Below, one piece after another: positions 2,051-10,137 of a stretch of 36,207 nucleotides of DNA. Under the pieces are notes generated by a model. That model saw nothing but the letters and a program-made list of their open reading frames with translations, was not told the origin of the DNA and made no database searches. The first letter of the stretch is position 1; every line of letters starts with the position of its first letter. A program made the position numbers and the translations under genes. Origin of the DNA: a virus (Duplodnaviria; Heunggongvirae; Uroviricota; Caudoviricetes); IMG/VR virus record IMGVR_UViG_2541047897_000007, positions 1-36,207 of that record; one strand, 5' to 3'.

Positions 2051-2455
2051 TCACCTACCCTTAGTTTCGTTATAGTCACGACCAGCGATACGGTTATTAC
2101 CACCAGAAATATTTAACTCACGTCCTGATGGCTGAGTTTCCTTTTCACTGATCGCACCTTTTAAAGCCCCAATCACCGCGTTTTTCACATCTAACGAAGC
2201 TGCTCGAAAGCGAGTAATCAACTCCTGCTCATCATCGTTATAAGTTTCAGGTGAGTGAATTCCCAACACAACATACTGAACATCAAGGCCAAAACGAGAC
2301 AGCGCTGCCAAATACGCAGCATCAGGAAAGCTATCTCCTTTCTCATATCTAAGCTGAGTTAGCTTTTTGACTCCACCAATGTCGCTCATGGCAACTTGAC
2401 TAAGTCCCAATCTTTCCCTTTCCTCACGCAACCGCTGACCAATATCATTTTTCAT
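2051..2455 (-). CDS. HTH XRE-family transcriptional regulator, probable prophage repressor
   Basis: 134-aa ORF; helix-turn-helix LSQVAMSDIGGVKKLTQLRYEKG; divergent from the early operon with a promoter/operator-like region between them. Confidence 0.75.
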   Translation of the reverse strand: MKNDIGQRLREERERLGLSQVAMSDIGGVKKLTQLRYEKGDSFPDAAYLAALSRFGLDVQYVVLGIHSPETYNDDEQELITRFRAASLDVKNAVIGALKGAISEKETQPSGRELNISGGNNRIAGRDYNETKGR

Positions 2456-4083: not shown

Positions 4084-4494
4084 ATGCACGCAAAAGAAGA
4101 AGGTATCATCAGAGCACTGAAAGAAATTTCAAAGACAGAAAACGAAGTAGCGAAAAAAGCCGTGGCAAATGCACATATGGACGTCGCAACCCACACACTG
4201 ATAGTCGCAAGAGTCACGGCAGAAGCAGCCGAAATTATCGCAAAACAGGATGCTGAACTGGCGGTTCTCAGAACACAACCAGTCACCGGACTGGATTTGT
4301 CTAACACCGGACGCCTTATTTACACAATTGGCTCGGAGCTACAGCGATACACCATTATCGCCGGATTACAGGATAAATACCTGATCACTCCTCACCCCAT
4401 AAGGGAATCAGAAATTCTGACAAATCTCCGCCTGATAGAACGCTCTCAAGTTGTATTCATTGATGACGCGCAATGTGCCGTATTTAACGCATAG
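4084..4494 (+). CDS. hypothetical protein
   Basis: 136-aa ORF preceded by a 94-bp AT-rich gap and a GGAG RBS; may have its own promoter. Confidence 0.55.
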   Translation: MHAKEEGIIRALKEISKTENEVAKKAVANAHMDVATHTLIVARVTAEAAEIIAKQDAELAVLRTQPVTGLDLSNTGRLIYTIGSELQRYTIIAGLQDKYLITPHPIRESEILTNLRLIERSQVVFIDDAQCAVFNA

Positions 4495-4517
4495 GGTTAC
4501 TGGACAAAGGGGGCGCA

Positions 4518-4721
4518 ATGGCAATTAAGCATTTTCCCGTCGTTCGCTTTACCTCCAGAGGGCGCGAATACGAGGTCGACGAACGCCTGATTACCACTAT
4601 CGACAAACATCGTTCGGAAAAGGATGCACACCACATCTACCTCACTGACGGCACTTACTTCTGCGCCACCAACGTGGCGCGGGTGAATCTTATCCGACAG
4701 GTACAGGAGCCACGCAGATGA
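4518..4721 (+). CDS. hypothetical protein
   Basis: 67-aa ORF with RBS aaggggg. Confidence 0.5.
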   Translation: MAIKHFPVVRFTSRGREYEVDERLITTIDKHRSEKDAHHIYLTDGTYFCATNVARVNLIRQVQEPRR

Positions 4722-4984
4722 CCATTCTGGACTACATCGCTACTCATCCGGGGTGTAGCGGCGGAGAGATCGCCGCAGCACTGAATACCCCAACCACAGC
4801 CATTAATGCTGAGTTACGCCGACTTTGGCGCGGCGGCTTAGTCATCAGAACAAACCGCAGCACAGGTGGTCGCGCTCGCAAAACAGGAGGCCAGGCTTCT
4901 TACCACGTAAACCCGATGCTGTTCGGGTGTAGTAATCCACTTACTCACATGTTTAACCAGCTACTGAAGGAAGCCAGAGCATGA
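4718..4984 (+). CDS. hypothetical protein, possibly winged-helix DNA-binding
   Basis: 88-aa ORF with AGGAG RBS; ILDYIATHPGCSGGEIAAALNTPTTAINAELRRLWRGGLV resembles a winged-helix recognition unit. Confidence 0.5.
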   Translation: MTILDYIATHPGCSGGEIAAALNTPTTAINAELRRLWRGGLVIRTNRSTGGRARKTGGQASYHVNPMLFGCSNPLTHMFNQLLKEARA

Positions 4985-5281
4985 GCACCATCAACCACCA
5001 GAAGCTACGCGAACTGGCATTTGCCCTGCAACGAATGGCAACGCCTCAAAAATTACTGGCATTTCGCGCAATGCTCTCGCCGTCTGCTGTGCTGGCACTG
5101 CTGGATCAGCTGGAGCACGCCAGAACCACTGCTCCAGCCATTCGCCTCACGCTCCATCATGAAATCGCTGATTTCTGCGCAACGCTGGGGGGCACCTGGC
5201 GAACCGGAAACGCCGGAAGCAATGCAGCAAGAGCTGCTGCAACGCATCGATAACGTTTTTGATTTTTTTCTGAACCAGTAA
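4981..5281 (+). CDS. hypothetical protein whose reading frame is broken at a G6 homopolymer
   Basis: ORF 4981..5253 and overlapping ORF 5021..5281 both look protein-like; they join into one product of about 100 aa if the G run at 5187..5192 were one G shorter. Confidence 0.4.
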
Positions 5282-5402
5282 GAAACCAGAACATGCACAC
5301 ACAAAAAAACCGCTTGCCATGCCTCAATCGGTCAGGTTACATTTCCGCTGCACCTCATAAAACGGGTGCCGGGATTCTCAACCCGATACAGAGCAAAGCG
5401 CA

Positions 5403-5428
5403 TAACCGCGCAAGCGGTTTTTTTGTGC
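5403..5428 (+). terminator. candidate rho-independent terminator
   Basis: aaccgc-GCAA-gcggtt hairpin followed by ttttt; also forms one arm of an 18-nt perfect inverted repeat with 5299..5316. Confidence 0.35.
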
Positions 5429-5603
5429 GTACTGTATTGCCACGTCTTTTTCGCGTCAGAATTATGGCGGGGCGTACGGGGCCGACTTCGGTCGGGCCGG
5501 ATTCTTTGCTCTCCGGTGTTGAGAACCCTGTACGTCTCGCCACCCCGAGATTCTCAACTCTGGATGGTGAGTTATTTCTATCACCGAGCAAAGAGGCCAC
5601 ACC

Positions 5604-5834
5604 ATGGCAGACCGCAAACAGCACCGCGCTATCGCGGAGCGTCGTCACATCCAGACTGAAATCAACCGCAGACTTTCCCGCGCATCACGCGTCGCGCAAA
5701 TCATGCACATCAATATGCTGCATGAGCGCAGCCACGCACTATCAAACATTTATTCCGCCTCTGTTTTCAGCTATCTGGCGGATGATCTGCACGAGCTTCA
5801 ACAGCTCATCCAGCAGCAAAACAAACTCCATTAA
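5604..5834 (+). CDS. hypothetical protein
   Basis: 76-aa ORF with RBS agagg 8 nt upstream; basic N-terminal half. Confidence 0.5.
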   Translation: MADRKQHRAIAERRHIQTEINRRLSRASRVAQIMHINMLHERSHALSNIYSASVFSYLADDLHELQQLIQQQNKLH

Positions 5835-5906
5835 TTCCTGTTCCGGGCCTTTCCTGCACCTTGCGGCGGGAGGCCTTCGCACATCTGTAACAAGAGGATT
5901 GCCGCA

Positions 5907-6272
5907 ATGATTCTCGCCAACGACTTTCTTGAATACCTGCTCAACACAGAGCGTGATCTTGCCGCTCGCGTGCGTGATCGTTATGACATGTACCTGAAAT
6001 CCCTGCCTGTACCGCAGCTCGCTGACGGAAAGATTGTTATTGATGGTCGCTACATGATTGACAGCCACGAGGGAAATTACAGGCTTTCCCGCATTGAAGG
6101 TGGCACCCCGTCCGTTATTGGCATTTACCAGCGCCCATCCTCTGCAATCGTCGATGTGATTGCCGACAGCATCCGCATCACACATCGCCATGCCGACACA
6201 GAAGACACCGTGCTGGAAATTCAGCGGCTGGCTACAGTCTGCCGCGACACCCTGAATGGCATGACGAAGTAA
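5907..6272 (+). CDS. hypothetical protein
   Basis: 121-aa ORF with RBS agagga; immediately upstream of gene A. Confidence 0.55.
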   Translation: MILANDFLEYLLNTERDLAARVRDRYDMYLKSLPVPQLADGKIVIDGRYMIDSHEGNYRLSRIEGGTPSVIGIYQRPSSAIVDVIADSIRITHRHADTEDTVLEIQRLATVCRDTLNGMTK

Positions 6273-6278
6273 ATCACT

Positions 6279-9101
6279 ATGACGGCAGAGTACATCAGGG
6301 ACTGGCAACAACCGCGCCACGCAGTGGGGCGTGAAGGAACGGGGATCCCCGCTCCTGAATCCGCGCTTTCCTCCTGGCTGGATGCCTACCGGGTAGAGAA
6401 CGAGCGCCGCCAGGAAATGGCTGATGCGGCGTTCTCCGCCACGCCGCTGGGCAACCTGATTAATAAAAGCCTGGACGCACAGGAAAAACAGGACAAAACC
6501 ATCACACTGGCAGGAGACGCCAGAAAACAGGCACGCGGCGCAGTGGATGAAGCCATGACCTCGCTGCGCCTGCTGCCGTCCTATCTGCGCGATCCGCTTA
6601 TTCGCCACCTCTCCTTCCTGCGCAAAAAACAGGAAGCCGATCGCCGGAAAGGCAAAAAGAGCTGGCAGGCGGAACGCTATGCACGCGGAACCCTGCGCAA
6701 AATATTCGAACGTCTGGACCGCACCGATCACCGCTGGCTGACACCGGGTTATCGCTCCCTTGCCGGACGCGAACGCCTGGACGATTTGCTTTACCTGCCG
6801 CAGCTCAACAAACACCAGATACAGACGCTGGCCACCATGACGGCGGCGATGTTCAGCAGCACCTTCGAAAAACTCTGCGATGGCTTTGGCGCGACTGATG
6901 GCGAACTGACCATGGATGTAACGCTGAAGGCGTATCAGATGCTGGCCCGCATGGCGTTACACCTGCACGCCATGCCTCCACATTATGACGCACTGACAAC
7001 AGACAAAGACCGGAGGAACGAACCGGACACAGAGCTGCTGCCGGGCGCAATCCTTCGCCTGACCTGTGCGGAATGGTGGAAACGCAAACTGTGGCTGTTA
7101 CGTTGCGAGTGGAGAGAAGAACAACTCCGCGCCGCCTGTCTGGTTTCCAGAAAAACATCGCCCTATCTGAGCCAGGACGCGTTAAGCGAGTTTCGCGCAC
7201 AGCGCGAGAAAACACGCGATTTCCTGAAAAGTTTCATGCTGGAAAACGAAGACGGGTTCACGATTGATCTCGAGACAGTGTATTACGCGGGAGTAAGTAA
7301 CCCGGTTCACCGTAAGGCAGAAATGATGGCCACCATGAAGGGACTGGAACTTCTGGCCGAAGCCCGTGGCGACAGAGCGGTGTTTCTGACTGTCACCTGC
7401 CCGTCAAAATACCACGCAACAACGGAGAACGGTCATCCGAACCCCAAATGGAACGGGGCCACCATGCGCGACTCCAGCGATTACCTGGTTAACACGTTTT
7501 TTGCGGCGGTCCGCAAAAAACTGAACCGCGACGGCCTGCGCTGGTATGGCATCCGCACGGTGGAGCCTCACCATGACGGCACCGTGCACTGGCATATGAT
7601 GGTCTTTGCTCATCCGGAAGAAATCGACAGCATCGTGGCCATCACCCGCGATATTGCCATTCAGGAAGACCGCCACGAGCTGGGCAATGATATTACTCCG
7701 CGCTTTAAAGTGGAGTATGTCGACGGCTCAAAAGGCACACCAACCAGCTATATCGCGACCTACATCGGGAAAAACCTGGACAGCCGCGCCGTGGATGGCA
7801 TCGACCCGAAAACGGGCAAACCACGCGTTGACCACGAAACCGGAAAATCAATGGCCGAGAGCGTGGAGCGCGCCATCGGTTGGGCACGCCTTCACCGGGT
7901 CCGCCAGTTCCAGTTCTTTGGCATCCCCTCCCGTCAGGTGTGGCGTGAACTCCGCCGCCTTGCCAGCCAGATGGCACGCAACCCGGAAGGCCCGCAACGG
8001 CTGAAGGATGACGCAATGGATGCGGTACTCGCTGCCGCTGATGCCGGATGTTTTGCCACCTACATAGAGAAACAGGGCGGCGTACTTGTTCCACGCAAAG
8101 ACTACCTGATTCGCACCGCCTACGACCTCGCCGATGAGCTGAACGATTACGGCGAACAGAGTGTACAGATTTACGGGATCTGGTCACCACTCATCGGGGA
8201 ATCCTCCCGTGTGTGCACGCACCCGGATAACTGGAAGCTGGTAAGACGTAAACCGGAACAGGAAGGCAGCGCCCACGAAAATGGTTTTGACCTTCAGGGC
8301 GGCCCTGCCGCCCCTTGGACTCGTGGCAATAACTGTCCCCGTGTACAGGAAACGGACAACAACGGGACAGAACAGCCGGAAGAACGGCCAGCACCGTGGC
8401 CGCAGCTCCCTGACGGCGTTGAAGTGAACGAATGGATGCGCTCACTGAAACGGCACGAACGCCGGGCGCTGATGCGTTCGCTTCGTGACAAACAGGCAAA
8501 AAACAGCAGTGATGAAATGCAGAGCTGGACACAGAGCCGCAAACAGCAGCGGCCTTTGCCTGATAACCACGAATTACTCGCTAAAGAATGGCGGGAGTCT
8601 GCTGAATCTCTCGGCCTGCATATCGGTGAACAACAGATGCAGCACCTGTTACGGGGCGGCAGTCTGTACGTTGACGGCAGCATCATTGCACCGCAGGGAT
8701 TTGAAATTGTACGCAAACCGGATACCCGCCCGGACAGCCGAATCACGCAGCTCTGGCAGCGCCTGAGCCGTAATCACGGCGTAAGCAGCACGGAGATCCG
8801 CCATAACCCGGTCGCCAGCTATCTGGCGCAACTGGGGGCATCAGACCCTGAAGCCGCCGCACGCCTGGCATCCACACTTCAGCAGGACCAGAACACCATG
8901 AAAACACCCGTTACCGTGCTTTCTGACATGCTGCGCGCCATCCGCGACACAGAGCACGCACAGAGAATCAGTGAAACCACTGAACGCGCCCGCCGCAAAG
9001 CAGACCTGCTGCGGGGTGGCCTGACCATTGGAAACAAAAAACAGACAGAAACGGGATTCACAAATCCCGTAAATGAGCAAAAAACGCGCCGCGATATATG
9101 A
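6279..9101 (+). CDS. A: replication initiation endonuclease (P2 gpA-like, rolling-circle HUH nuclease)
   Basis: 940-aa ORF; HUH-type motif VHWHMMVFAH and tyrosine pair in SYIATYIGK; position after the early operon as in P2. Confidence 0.9.
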   Translation: MTAEYIRDWQQPRHAVGREGTGIPAPESALSSWLDAYRVENERRQEMADAAFSATPLGNLINKSLDAQEKQDKTITLAGDARKQARGAVDEAMTSLRLLPSYLRDPLIRHLSFLRKKQEADRRKGKKSWQAERYARGTLRKIFERLDRTDHRWLTPGYRSLAGRERLDDLLYLPQLNKHQIQTLATMTAAMFSSTFEKLCDGFGATDGELTMDVTLKAYQMLARMALHLHAMPPHYDALTTDKDRRNEPDTELLPGAILRLTCAEWWKRKLWLLRCEWREEQLRAACLVSRKTSPYLSQDALSEFRAQREKTRDFLKSFMLENEDGFTIDLETVYYAGVSNPVHRKAEMMATMKGLELLAEARGDRAVFLTVTCPSKYHATTENGHPNPKWNGATMRDSSDYLVNTFFAAVRKKLNRDGLRWYGIRTVEPHHDGTVHWHMMVFAHPEEIDSIVAITRDIAIQEDRHELGNDITPRFKVEYVDGSKGTPTSYIATYIGKNLDSRAVDGIDPKTGKPRVDHETGKSMAESVERAIGWARLHRVRQFQFFGIPSRQVWRELRRLASQMARNPEGPQRLKDDAMDAVLAAADAGCFATYIEKQGGVLVPRKDYLIRTAYDLADELNDYGEQSVQIYGIWSPLIGESSRVCTHPDNWKLVRRKPEQEGSAHENGFDLQGGPAAPWTRGNNCPRVQETDNNGTEQPEERPAPWPQLPDGVEVNEWMRSLKRHERRALMRSLRDKQAKNSSDEMQSWTQSRKQQRPLPDNHELLAKEWRESAESLGLHIGEQQMQHLLRGGSLYVDGSIIAPQGFEIVRKPDTRPDSRITQLWQRLSRNHGVSSTEIRHNPVASYLAQLGASDPEAAARLASTLQQDQNTMKTPVTVLSDMLRAIRDTEHAQRISETTERARRKADLLRGGLTIGNKKQTETGFTNPVNEQKTRRDI

Positions 9102-9177: not shown

Positions 9178-10137
9178 ATGAAAATTTGTATCGATGACGG
9201 CTCCACCAACATCAAGCTGGCATGGACTGAGAACGGCGAACGCCGCAACGCCATCAGCCCAAACAGCTTCAAGTCGGAATGGTCTGCGCCGTTCGGTGGC
9301 ACGCAGCCCGCGAACTACATGCTTGATGGCGTGCGCTATGGTTTTGATCCGGTCAGCGATCGCTTTGTCCAGACGACCGACACGCAATACCAGTACAGCG
9401 ATGTGAATGTCATTGCCATTCATCACGCGCTGGTCAAATCAGGCATCACACCACAGGAAGTGGATGTGGTTGTCACCCTGCCACTGAGCGAATATTTCGA
9501 CACAAACGCACAGCCGGTCATGGCCAACATCAACCGCAAAAAAGCAAACGTCATGCGCCCGGTGGCGTACCAGAACGGAAAAGCATTCACTATCCGTAAC
9601 GTACGGGTTATGCCTGAATCCATTCCGGCTGGTTTTAAAGCACTGGCTGACATGAGTCCGTTTGAATCCCTGCTGATTGTGGATTTAGGCGGAACCACGC
9701 TGGATGTGGCAAAGGTTCAGGGACAACTGGCAGGTATCAGCCAGGTGTTTTGCGATCCACACGTAGGCGTTTCCCTGATGGCCGATGCCGTACTGTCGGT
9801 GATGGCCACTAACGGTATGCGTACCAGTCACCACATCGCCAATACCATTATCGAACATCGCCATGATGAAGCTTGGCTGCGCCAGCACATCCACAATGAC
9901 GCGCATTACGACAGCCTGATAGCGGTTATTCGTGAAAAGGAAGAAACACTGAAACAACGCGTGATCCGCGCGCTGGCGGGTTTTTCGGGTTACGGGCGGG
10001 TGATGGTTGTCGGTGGCGGGGCGGAGATTGTGGCACCCGCTATCCGCGAAGCCTGCGGAGTTAATGCGACTTTCATCGCGGACGGGGTGCCACAGTTTGC
10101 TCTGGTTAATGGGCTGTACGCAATGGACAAGGAGTAA
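9178..10137 (+). CDS. parM: ParM/StbA-like actin-type segregation ATPase
   Basis: 319-aa ORF; actin-fold motifs IDDGSTNIKL, IVDLGGTTLD and VVGGGAE; close match along its length to plasmid R1 ParM as recalled from memory. Confidence 0.85.
   Translation: MKICIDDGSTNIKLAWTENGERRNAISPNSFKSEWSAPFGGTQPANYMLDGVRYGFDPVSDRFVQTTDTQYQYSDVNVIAIHHALVKSGITPQEVDVVVTLPLSEYFDTNAQPVMANINRKKANVMRPVAYQNGKAFTIRNVRVMPESIPAGFKALADMSPFESLLIVDLGGTTLDVAKVQGQLAGISQVFCDPHVGVSLMADAVLSVMATNGMRTSHHIANTIIEHRHDEAWLRQHIHNDAHYDSLIAVIREKEETLKQRVIRALAGFSGYGRVMVVGGGAEIVAPAIREACGVNATFIADGVPQFALVNGLYAMDKE

Follow-up and report, generated by a model that had tools for sequence, protein, structure and literature searches.

What is encoded in a stretch of about 310 nucleotides in the early operon of a prophage, in which a conspicuous inverted repeat but no recognisable gene had been noticed? 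The stretch in question comprises positions 5290-5600 of the virus record IMGVR_UViG_2541047897_000007, the 36,207 nucleotides (nt) of which are referred to as the window in the following, and which represents a P88-like (Xuanwuvirus, P2 family) prophage of Escherichia coli. A first-pass annotation made from the letters of the sequence had described a highly structured, non-coding region and considered a small structured RNA or cis regulatory element, an origin-like element, or a miniature inverted-repeat insertion. It is the first of these suggestions that was borne out by the comparisons reported here, which leave very little doubt that 5290-5600 is an RNA immunity module of the P4 type with two small RNAs, one resembling IsrK/seqA and the other C4/CI, together with their target sites in cis (Table 1). 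The 18-nt inverted repeat is a secondary feature of this module and not its core.

With curated thresholds, only two matches to Rfam families were found in the 36-kb window, isrK and C4, and both lie within 5290-5600, while a scan of the window for tRNA and tmRNA genes returned none. The C4 match covers positions 1-87 of the 87 positions of the model. Over 60 distinct sequences, the C4 fold with its closing stem of 17 bp and two hairpins is paired in 99.7% of cells, and compensatory changes are present in 17 of its 27 pairs. The short GC hairpins noticed beforehand are real and belong to the C4 RNA. The same combination of isrK and C4 is found in P88, a Citrobacter phage, Stx phages, P4 and eight distant relatives. 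Both Rfam models are known to detect relatives of CI and seqA (PMC10111431), and IsrK has been described as a structural homologue of P4 seqA (PMC4825925).

The isrK match, also above its gathering cut-off, consists of a 5' hairpin, a hairpin carrying target a1, target b1 and an intrinsic terminator, which is the last of its three hairpins and was likewise returned by a terminator scan and by folding. Transcription from the promoter-like site is predicted to start at about 5350, the first position of the Rfam isrK model, and the promoter hexamers are invariant in 14 P88-like variants. In the terminator, the stem AACCGC/GCGGTT (5404-5409/5414-5419) is followed by a run of seven T (5418-5424), and the six bases before the hairpin can pair with the six after the U-run to give a lower stem (GCGCAT/GTGCGT, 5398-5403/5425-5430) that extends past the 3' end of the Rfam model and would be expected to form only in read-through RNA. 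This lower stem is fully paired (6/6) in 38 of 49 terminator types, with compensatory changes between, e.g., GCGCAY/RTGCGT, CGATAC/GTATCG, CGACAT/ATGTCG and other pair types. A second promoter serving C4 (TTGCCA, 17 nt, AATTAT; 5437-5465, plus strand) is unlikely, as relatives have either TTGCCA or TCGCCA in the place of its -35 hexamer and as its second hexamer, like AATTATGG, belongs to the C4 model.

Further evidence comes from the two loops of the C4 RNA. As expected for a member of this family, they are complementary both to an upstream pair of targets, a1 and b1, and to a downstream pair, a2 and b2, on a ribosome-binding site. The short repeats of the region are these very loops and targets: ttctcaac/gttgagaa, the inverted copies of which had been reported correctly, occurs in two direct copies (5375-5382, 5551-5558) and one inverted copy (5518-5525), and gagcaaag/ctttgctc likewise in direct copies at 5391-5398 and 5586-5593 and an inverted copy at 5504-5511. 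An alignment of 14 P88-like variants is near-invariant except for the six loop and target segments, which change in concert. Among 56 distinct variants from P2-family and lambdoid phages there are 37 types of C4 loops, and cognate duplexes are on average considerably more stable than non-cognate ones, with -28.9 vs -18.5 kcal/mol for a1b1 and -35.3 vs -22.8 kcal/mol for a2b2; in 51 of the 56 variants the own a2b2 is the best partner of the loops. Such co-variation of loops and targets is the classical pattern of heteroimmunity of P1/P7 c4 and P4 CI. In the P88-like variants, moreover, the a and b specificities assort independently, the a-type TTCTCAAC being found together with the b-types GAGCAAAG, TAACGAAG, ACACACG and AAACGAAG, which suggests recombination between two determinants and thus a combinatorial set of immunity types.

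Table 1. Coordinates of the module, its flanking repeat arms and the genes that it precedes, in window positions
Feature	Position	Strand	Basis or remark
205-codon open reading frame, P4 eta analogue (Phage_ASH frame)	5293-5910	+	ORF list, frame conservation, weak PF10554
Left arm of inverted repeat	5297-5317 (perfect core 5300-5317, cacaaaaaaaccgcttgc)	+	repeat search
isrK promoter-like site (TTGCCA, 18 nt spacer, TACATT)	5314-5343	+	promoter scan
isrK / P4 seqA-like RNA (Rfam RF01394)	5350-5424	+	63.1 bits, cut-off 50
a1 target CCGGGATTCTCAAC	5369-5382	+	inside isrK, complementary to loop a'
b1 target ACAGAGCAAAG	5388-5398	+	inside isrK, complementary to loop b'
isrK terminator region	5398-5430	+	scan, folding
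Right arm of inverted repeat	5410-5430 (perfect core 5410-5427, gcaagcggtttttttgtg)	+	repeat search, folding
C4 / P4 CI-type antisense RNA (Rfam RF01695, clan CL00128)	5460-5547	+	78.5 bits, cut-off 45
C4 loop b' TCTTTGCTCT	5503-5512	+	complementary to b1, b2
C4 loop a' GTTGAGAACCC	5518-5528	+	complementary to a1, a2
a2 target CCGAGATTCTCAAC	5545-5558	+	complementary to loop a'
b2 target ACCGAGCAAAGAGG	5583-5596	+	overlaps Shine-Dalgarno (AAGAGG) before ATG 5604
Epsilon-like 'derepression' (anti-repressor) gene, 76 aa	5604-5834	+	PF25738, E 7.5e-8
orf121 (121 aa)	5907-6272	+	ORF list
Replication gene A (gpA)	6279-9101	+	PF05840 Phage_GPA, E 1.7e-130

With respect to the genes that are controlled, the product encoded directly behind b2 matches the Derepression family with 32.5 bits at a cut-off of 27, and epsilon of P4 belongs to the same family (E 9e-51). 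Changes in this frame show an excess at third positions. By analogy with the known systems, the epsilon-like gene would be the first gene under control of the C4 RNA, and expression of orf121 and gene A would depend on transcripts that pass the module.

The statement that the region contains 'no convincing ORF' did not stand up to comparison, as an open reading frame (ORF) of 205 codons runs across all of it. This ORF begins upstream of the isrK promoter, crosses isrK, C4 and a2/b2, overlaps the epsilon-like gene out of frame and ends in a TGA that overlaps the ATG of orf121 (ATGA, 5907-5910). From upstream of the promoter through C4 the frame is open in 46 of 47 P2-family variants and in 35 of 45 variants from other contexts, as well as in all eight members of a distant lineage (L217-L224) with an epsilon that is about 45% identical. 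Over 88 distinct isrK-C4 loci, the mean numbers of stops in the three frames across the module are 1.65, 3.3 and 0.02 in P2-family copies and 4.24, 6.05 and 0.40 in other contexts, the depletion of stop codons being specific to the frame of the long ORF. Also the two ends are kept, with an ATG just 5' of the left arm and an ATGA overlap with the next gene in the P88 lineage, where there are two junction alleles, and in all of L217-L224. When nine epsilon alleles were recoded synonymously, the overlapping frame stayed open in just 0.3-32% of the recodings, and combining seven roughly independent alleles by Fisher's method gives about 1e-4 by our own arithmetic. What is conserved in the long ORF is its openness and its coupling to the next gene and not a protein product, and we consider it probable that it is translated. 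The long ORF of lambdoid copies is preceded by a canonical Shine-Dalgarno sequence and is continuous, in the same frame, with a gene for a Rha-type anti-repressor.

The distant lineage was found by a scan of viral sequences with an epsilon alignment in which a divergent sequence had been placed first, whereas the scan with the first epsilon alignment had returned near-identical relatives only; a scan of genome contigs with the epsilon-like protein gave only 3 close loci. In some viral contigs, isrK-C4 modules are found in tandem about 680 bp apart, as in L220 (1577-1768 and 2256-2447), L123 and L038, and in L038 one long ORF spans both modules.

The frame of the long ORF is also the one described by the Pfam family Phage_ASH (PF10554). 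Residues 16-108 of the translation (window 5338-5617) match this family with E 0.0027 and 18.6 bits, below the cut-off of 26, and a BLASTP comparison with P4 eta is weak (E 0.09), the aligned part being encoded by the promoter and isrK only. In P4, the old 'cI gene product' coding sequence matches Phage_ASH (E 4e-16, 59.7 bits; 4169-4585 on the minus strand of the P4 locus L137) and forms the C-terminal part of a 214-codon ORF through seqA and CI. This ORF we take to be eta, with kil as its last 65 codons, in agreement with the lengths. Phage_ASH is thus a frame that overlaps RNA genes and not epsilon, which in P4 matches PF25738. Because Phage_ASH overlaps the CI RNA gene, PGAP labels isrK-C4 regions as 'ash family protein' pseudogenes, and such incomplete genes are annotated at the homologous stretch in several relatives. 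In at least one survey, PF10554 has been used as a marker of epsilon (PMC8628076).

Concerning the inverted repeat itself, the perfect 18 nt do exist, although the coordinates given for them were off by one and the arms are separated by 92 and not by about 94 nt. The repeat extends to 21 nt with one mismatch (5297-5317/5410-5430), and, with about 1e-6 such pairs of 18-mers expected within 311 nt by our own arithmetic, it is not due to chance. No further copy of either arm with up to 4 mismatches is present in the 36-kb window. The left arm makes up codons 2-9 of the long ORF, and its A7 tract and TTGC are situated just upstream of, and overlapping, the -35 hexamer of the isrK promoter; it is therefore absent from RNA that is started at this promoter. 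The right arm is composed of the loop, the 3' strand and the U-run of the isrK terminator plus GUGCGU, so that the left arm duplicates the 5' strand of the terminator and competes for its 3' strand and U-run. A terminator on the minus strand at the left arm was considered as well and rejected, as the local hairpin has just 3-4 bp and there is no minus-strand gene nearby.

The perfect 18 nt are specific to the allele group of the window, with the terminator loop GCAA, while most relatives, including 13 of 14 aligned P88-like sequences, have the loop GCCA and an exact core of 15 nt. Over the 135 loci compared, all those with epsilon or gpA downstream have an exact complementarity between arm and terminator of at least 10 nt, and in 61 loci it amounts to at least 15 nt. 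In contrast, it is below 10 nt in 69 of the 70 loci without epsilon or gpA downstream, the single exception being a contig with upstream genes of the P88 type that breaks off 130 nt after the isrK site. In line with this, duplexes between arm and terminator have energies of -25 to -31.5 kcal/mol in loci of the P2 family vs -7 to -17 kcal/mol elsewhere, and the latter values are no better than those of non-cognate pairs. The repeat is hence not a general trait of isrK modules, being absent from 69 lambdoid loci and from P4, and occurs only in P2-family copies. Distant lineages keep an arm with A5 instead of A7 and have the flanks CACGTAC...ACGTG instead of ACGCAC...GTGCGT with complementarity retained, which is modest evidence for selection on pairing.

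Folding predictions point to a consequence of this arrangement. The RNA 5290-5435 folds at -55.3 kcal/mol, compared to -34.4 +/- 3.6 kcal/mol for shuffled sequences (z = -5.8; 0 of 200 as good), and in the minimum-energy fold 5291-5317 are paired with 5410-5434. For RNA started upstream, the equilibrium probability of the terminator stem is about 0 already once 5410-5416 have emerged, with the long-range pairs at 0.90 by then, while it is about 0.9 for RNA started at 5350. Likewise, in 17 P2-family variants the terminator stem is predicted at about 0 from the end of the U-run onwards with the upstream start, and with the isrK start at 0.3-0.9 where the U-run ends and at 0.84-0.99 after a further twelve nt. 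In P4 and most lambdoid controls, the predicted probability of the terminator is high for both start points. On this thermodynamic basis the repeat may act as an antiterminator for upstream-started RNA, a proposal that we rate at somewhat below an even chance; if antitermination by the arm occurs, it would be of a non-classical mode.

From family membership, the complementarity and co-variation of the targets, the open frame, the restriction of the repeat to the P2 family and the thermodynamic predictions we infer the following behaviour in transcription, processing, translation and termination. In a lysogen, the promoter at 5314-5343 would be constitutively active and give rise to a short IsrK-like RNA ending at the intrinsic terminator, and read-through past this terminator would yield the C4-like RNA. 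By pairing with a2/b2, the loops of the latter would mask the ribosome-binding site that serves the epsilon-like anti-repressor gene, and by analogy with P1 and P4 this pairing would also end transcription before orf121 and gene A. Being a competing site for the same loops, a1/b1 in the IsrK-like RNA would set the level of free C4. The 205-codon ORF would be translatable only from RNA started upstream, at the early promoter, and ribosomes crossing the module would prevent termination and strip off C4, as with P4 eta, before moving on to orf121 via the ATGA overlap; in this way, transcripts from the early promoter would escape the phage's own RNA immunity. Only in this upstream-started RNA would the left arm be available for pairing with the 3' strand of the terminator and its U-run, and the hairpin would be blocked.

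An early operon of the P2 family with a strong intrinsic terminator before gene A would presumably need a bypass of its own, and the fact that lambdoid phages have N/Q antitermination and P4 relies on translation of eta offers, in our view, a possible reason for the distribution of the repeat. As an overall explanation of the locus, an immunity module nested in an eta-like ORF, with the repeat as a second bypass at the level of RNA, appears likely to us. We are more tentative, and on balance rather doubtful, about the further-reaching proposal of a switch that senses the promoter of origin, in which both the terminator-disabling arm and a bridge ORF would be found only on early-promoter RNA, and in which translation of this ORF, and not its product, would carry ribosomes through the immunity RNAs and, in another frame, across the epsilon-like gene, to be passed to the replication genes by the ATGA overlap. 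If true, one and the same DNA would be silent when read from the internal promoter and fully expressed when read from the upstream one.

There are a number of points that weigh against antitermination by the arm and against translation of the ORF. The folding results are equilibrium calculations, and a local hairpin of 6 bp may be quicker to form than a helix that has to close a loop of 92 nt. Classical attenuators have an upstream segment that sequesters the 5' strand of the terminator, which is not the case here. The arms are nearly invariant, so that true co-variation of the long-range helix is scarce and a test for it within the P88 lineage had no variation to work with; the only base that does vary, the third one of the terminator loop (C, A, T or G), has no compensating change in the left arm. 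In addition, the lambdoid lineages L072 and L116 have retained AAAAAAACCGCTTGA in front of the promoter, with no terminator to match, and the left arm is also constrained as A-tract and -35 region of the isrK promoter and as the start of the ORF, which could alone explain its conservation. As to the ORF, its substitutions show no excess at third positions, the ATG at 5293 in the window has a weak Shine-Dalgarno sequence, and a frameshift in the gene directly upstream puts the stop of that gene 40 nt, not 11 nt, before this ATG. Finally, no studies of transcripts, processing, ribosomes or termination in this group of phages were found in the literature searched.

Some of these points would fit a repeat without any function at the level of RNA, whose left arm is kept merely as an UP-like A-tract with the -35 hexamer and as ORF start, and whose complementarity is a historical by-product, arising, e.g., when part of the terminator was copied in inverted orientation and the copy came to serve as a promoter. 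The A7 tract, which borders the -35 hexamer on its upstream side, occupies the usual place of a promoter UP element, the left arm resembles the reverse complement of the 3' half of the terminator up to the loop, and along with L072 and L116 also L051 and L078 keep A6-7-CC(GC/AG)TTGAT at the same position of the promoter with unmatched terminators. However, those parts of the arm that are dispensable for a promoter (CCGC; ACGCAC / CACGTAC) are conserved or have changed in step with the right arm, even where the spacer between -35 and -10 has diverged completely, and the association with a P2-family context is complete (66 loci vs 69), which makes a functionless repeat appear unlikely. Alternatively, the long helix might act post-transcriptionally, with a duplex of 21-26 bp that buries AUG 5293 and the first codons and/or is a site for RNase III; translation of the ORF would then depend on coupling to the upstream gene, and a cut by RNase III would separate the upstream early mRNA from the immunity/replication segment. 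The minimum-energy fold does include AUG 5293 in its paired part, the 18-bp core plus extension comes close to the known lengths of RNase III substrates, and the stop of the upstream gene lies 1 or 11 nt 5' of the ATG of the long ORF in all three upstream contexts that were found. Against such a role, the helix has an internal mismatch in most relatives and a bulge in distant lineages, and we consider it improbable, though it is compatible with antitermination by the arm and does not exclude it.

For the region as a whole, it had been proposed as a refuting observation that homologous phages might have a normal protein-coding gene here, of which the present copy is a decayed pseudogene. The frame is indeed conserved, and both the incomplete 'ash family protein' genes called by PGAP and the weak Phage_ASH match could be taken to mean that the RNA-like features are incidental. 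The RNAs are not displaced by this, however: two Rfam models score above their curated cut-offs, compensatory changes support the C4 helices, loops and targets co-vary, the frame is intact and its substitutions are without a codon-position pattern, and the Pfam family was itself built on the old P4 'cI protein' ORF that overlaps the CI RNA gene. As in P4, where eta lies over seqA and CI, ORF and RNAs coexist here, and a decayed gene is very improbable. Hardly worth considering is an insertion at 5297-5430 in the early operon, either of a mobile element of the miniature inverted-repeat kind or of a DNA structure resembling an origin, even though terminal inverted repeats of 18-21 nt are present and the left edge of the left arm is exactly the point at which homology to three upstream contexts (an ead/Ea22-like gene, a helix-turn-helix gene and an SPFH gene) ends. 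There is no duplication of a target site on the flanks and no second copy in the window, the arms accompany C4, which lies outside them, in every locus examined, and a1/b1 inside the arms co-vary with the C4 loops outside. An origin is further disfavoured by the lack of iterons in the repeat search, and the replication origin of phage P2 is located inside gene A.

With at least 80% of 5260-5610 being present in 1142 of 5426 complete E. coli genomes, about one fifth of these, including O157:H7 and ST131 strains, carry the module, which genome annotation shows as empty space, a 'hypothetical protein' or an 'ash family protein' pseudogene. Once read as a C4/CI-type RNA plus an epsilon-like anti-repressor, the module accounts for a second layer of immunity in P2-family prophages that is based on RNA and comes in many heteroimmune types, and the meaning of Pfam Phage_ASH is corrected. 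If discrimination by promoter of origin is true, a single DNA segment would combine the genes of two RNAs with a reading frame of regulatory function and a structural switch, which would refine a known mechanism and not constitute a new one.

The closest phage records to the region are P88-like coliphages with 92% identity, and the module region is 100% identical to one E. coli chromosome. An 88%-identical copy of this enterobacterial prophage region is found in a sequence labelled Vagococcus sp. (L009, NZ_JBQPOM010000071.1), which may be due to contamination or a mislabelled assembly. At its left end the window has an integrase and a helix-turn-helix repressor gene on the minus strand, followed by the rightward operon; the C-type repressor of the phage is encoded at 2051-2455 (minus strand). 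The ead/Ea22-like gene directly upstream of the module (4981-5281) is frameshifted by a run of six G at 5187-5192, where only five G are present in nine related loci of the same allele, whose gene of 99 codons is intact; the additional G reflects either a real pseudogene or a sequencing error in the homopolymer. Between this gene and the left arm, some relatives have an extra helix-turn-helix gene of 183 aa (L003, 2096-2647; L010, 1940-2491; L014), among them the Citrobacter phage phiSM, while in others an SPFH-domain gene occupies this upstream slot, the junction always being the left edge of the arm. Directly 3' of gpA lies a gene for a ParM/StbA-type actin-like segregation protein (9178-10137, plus strand; Pfam StbA_N, E 5e-81), an unusual cargo for an integrated prophage of the P2 family.

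Comparison with known systems shows that the module design, i.e., targets, C4, targets and anti-repressor within a long ORF, has already been published for P4, P1, Gifsy-1 and related satellites. The closest correspondence is with P4, in the immunity region of which the promoter PLE, seqA, the CI RNA (seqB) and seqC are nested in eta/kil, followed by epsilon and alpha. There, too, isrK matches the seqA region and C4 the CI RNA, with order and orientation as in the window, the promoter likewise lies within an ORF of about 200 codons that has the same frame relative to isrK, and the RNA module is followed by an epsilon-family gene, a small ORF and a replication gene. According to PMC10111431 (citing Forti 1999), CI and seqA lie inside eta, and only transcripts from the upstream promoter allow eta to be translated, which in turn prevents the immunity-specific termination; there, too, transcripts from an upstream promoter must pass the immunity site. 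Unlike the satellite P4 with its alpha, however, the prophage analysed here is a full P2-family phage with gpA. It has no kil, the C4 target is located directly on the ribosome-binding site of epsilon, and the epsilon-like gene is overprinted by the long ORF in a different frame, whereas kil lies in frame within eta; in-frame nesting of the first downstream gene is found in the lambdoid copies and not in the window. In addition, P4 lacks an arm complementary to the terminator, which in P4 is predicted to form in both classes of transcripts.

In the immI region of P1/P7, the order is a1 b1, c4, a2 b2, icd, ant (Rfam C4). As here, a two-loop antisense RNA pairs with duplicated target pairs upstream and downstream, the downstream targets overlie the ribosome-binding site of the first ORF in front of the anti-repressor, and many heteroimmune specificities arise by co-variation of loops and targets. 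The C4 RNA of P1 is freed from a longer transcript by RNase P, as is its counterpart in P4, and acts with Rho-dependent polarity. The c4-a1b1 motif, to which the isrK family is equivalent, is listed by Weinberg et al. 2010 (PMC2864571). Unlike in P1/P7, the controlled protein here belongs to the epsilon (Derepression) family and is not Icd/Ant, and the module lies within the early replication operon. A member of the same isrK family followed by an anti-repressor gene is also found in Gifsy-1 of Salmonella (isrK - orf45 (STnc1160) - anrP; PMC4825925), where one promoter gives rise to a short terminated RNA and a read-through mRNA, the stable RNA STnc1160 lies just downstream of isrK, and the published model has the short IsrK activating translation in trans (PMC4825925). 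In contrast to the present prophage, Gifsy-1 is lambdoid, and the lambdoid copies examined here have no upstream arm.

In the literature searched, there was no paper on the RNA module of P88-like phages, and nothing published was found on a P4-type module with an epsilon homologue before gpA in these helper-type phages, on an out-of-frame 'bridge' over epsilon or on an arm complementary to the terminator. These features are variations on the mechanism known from P4, P1 and Gifsy-1.

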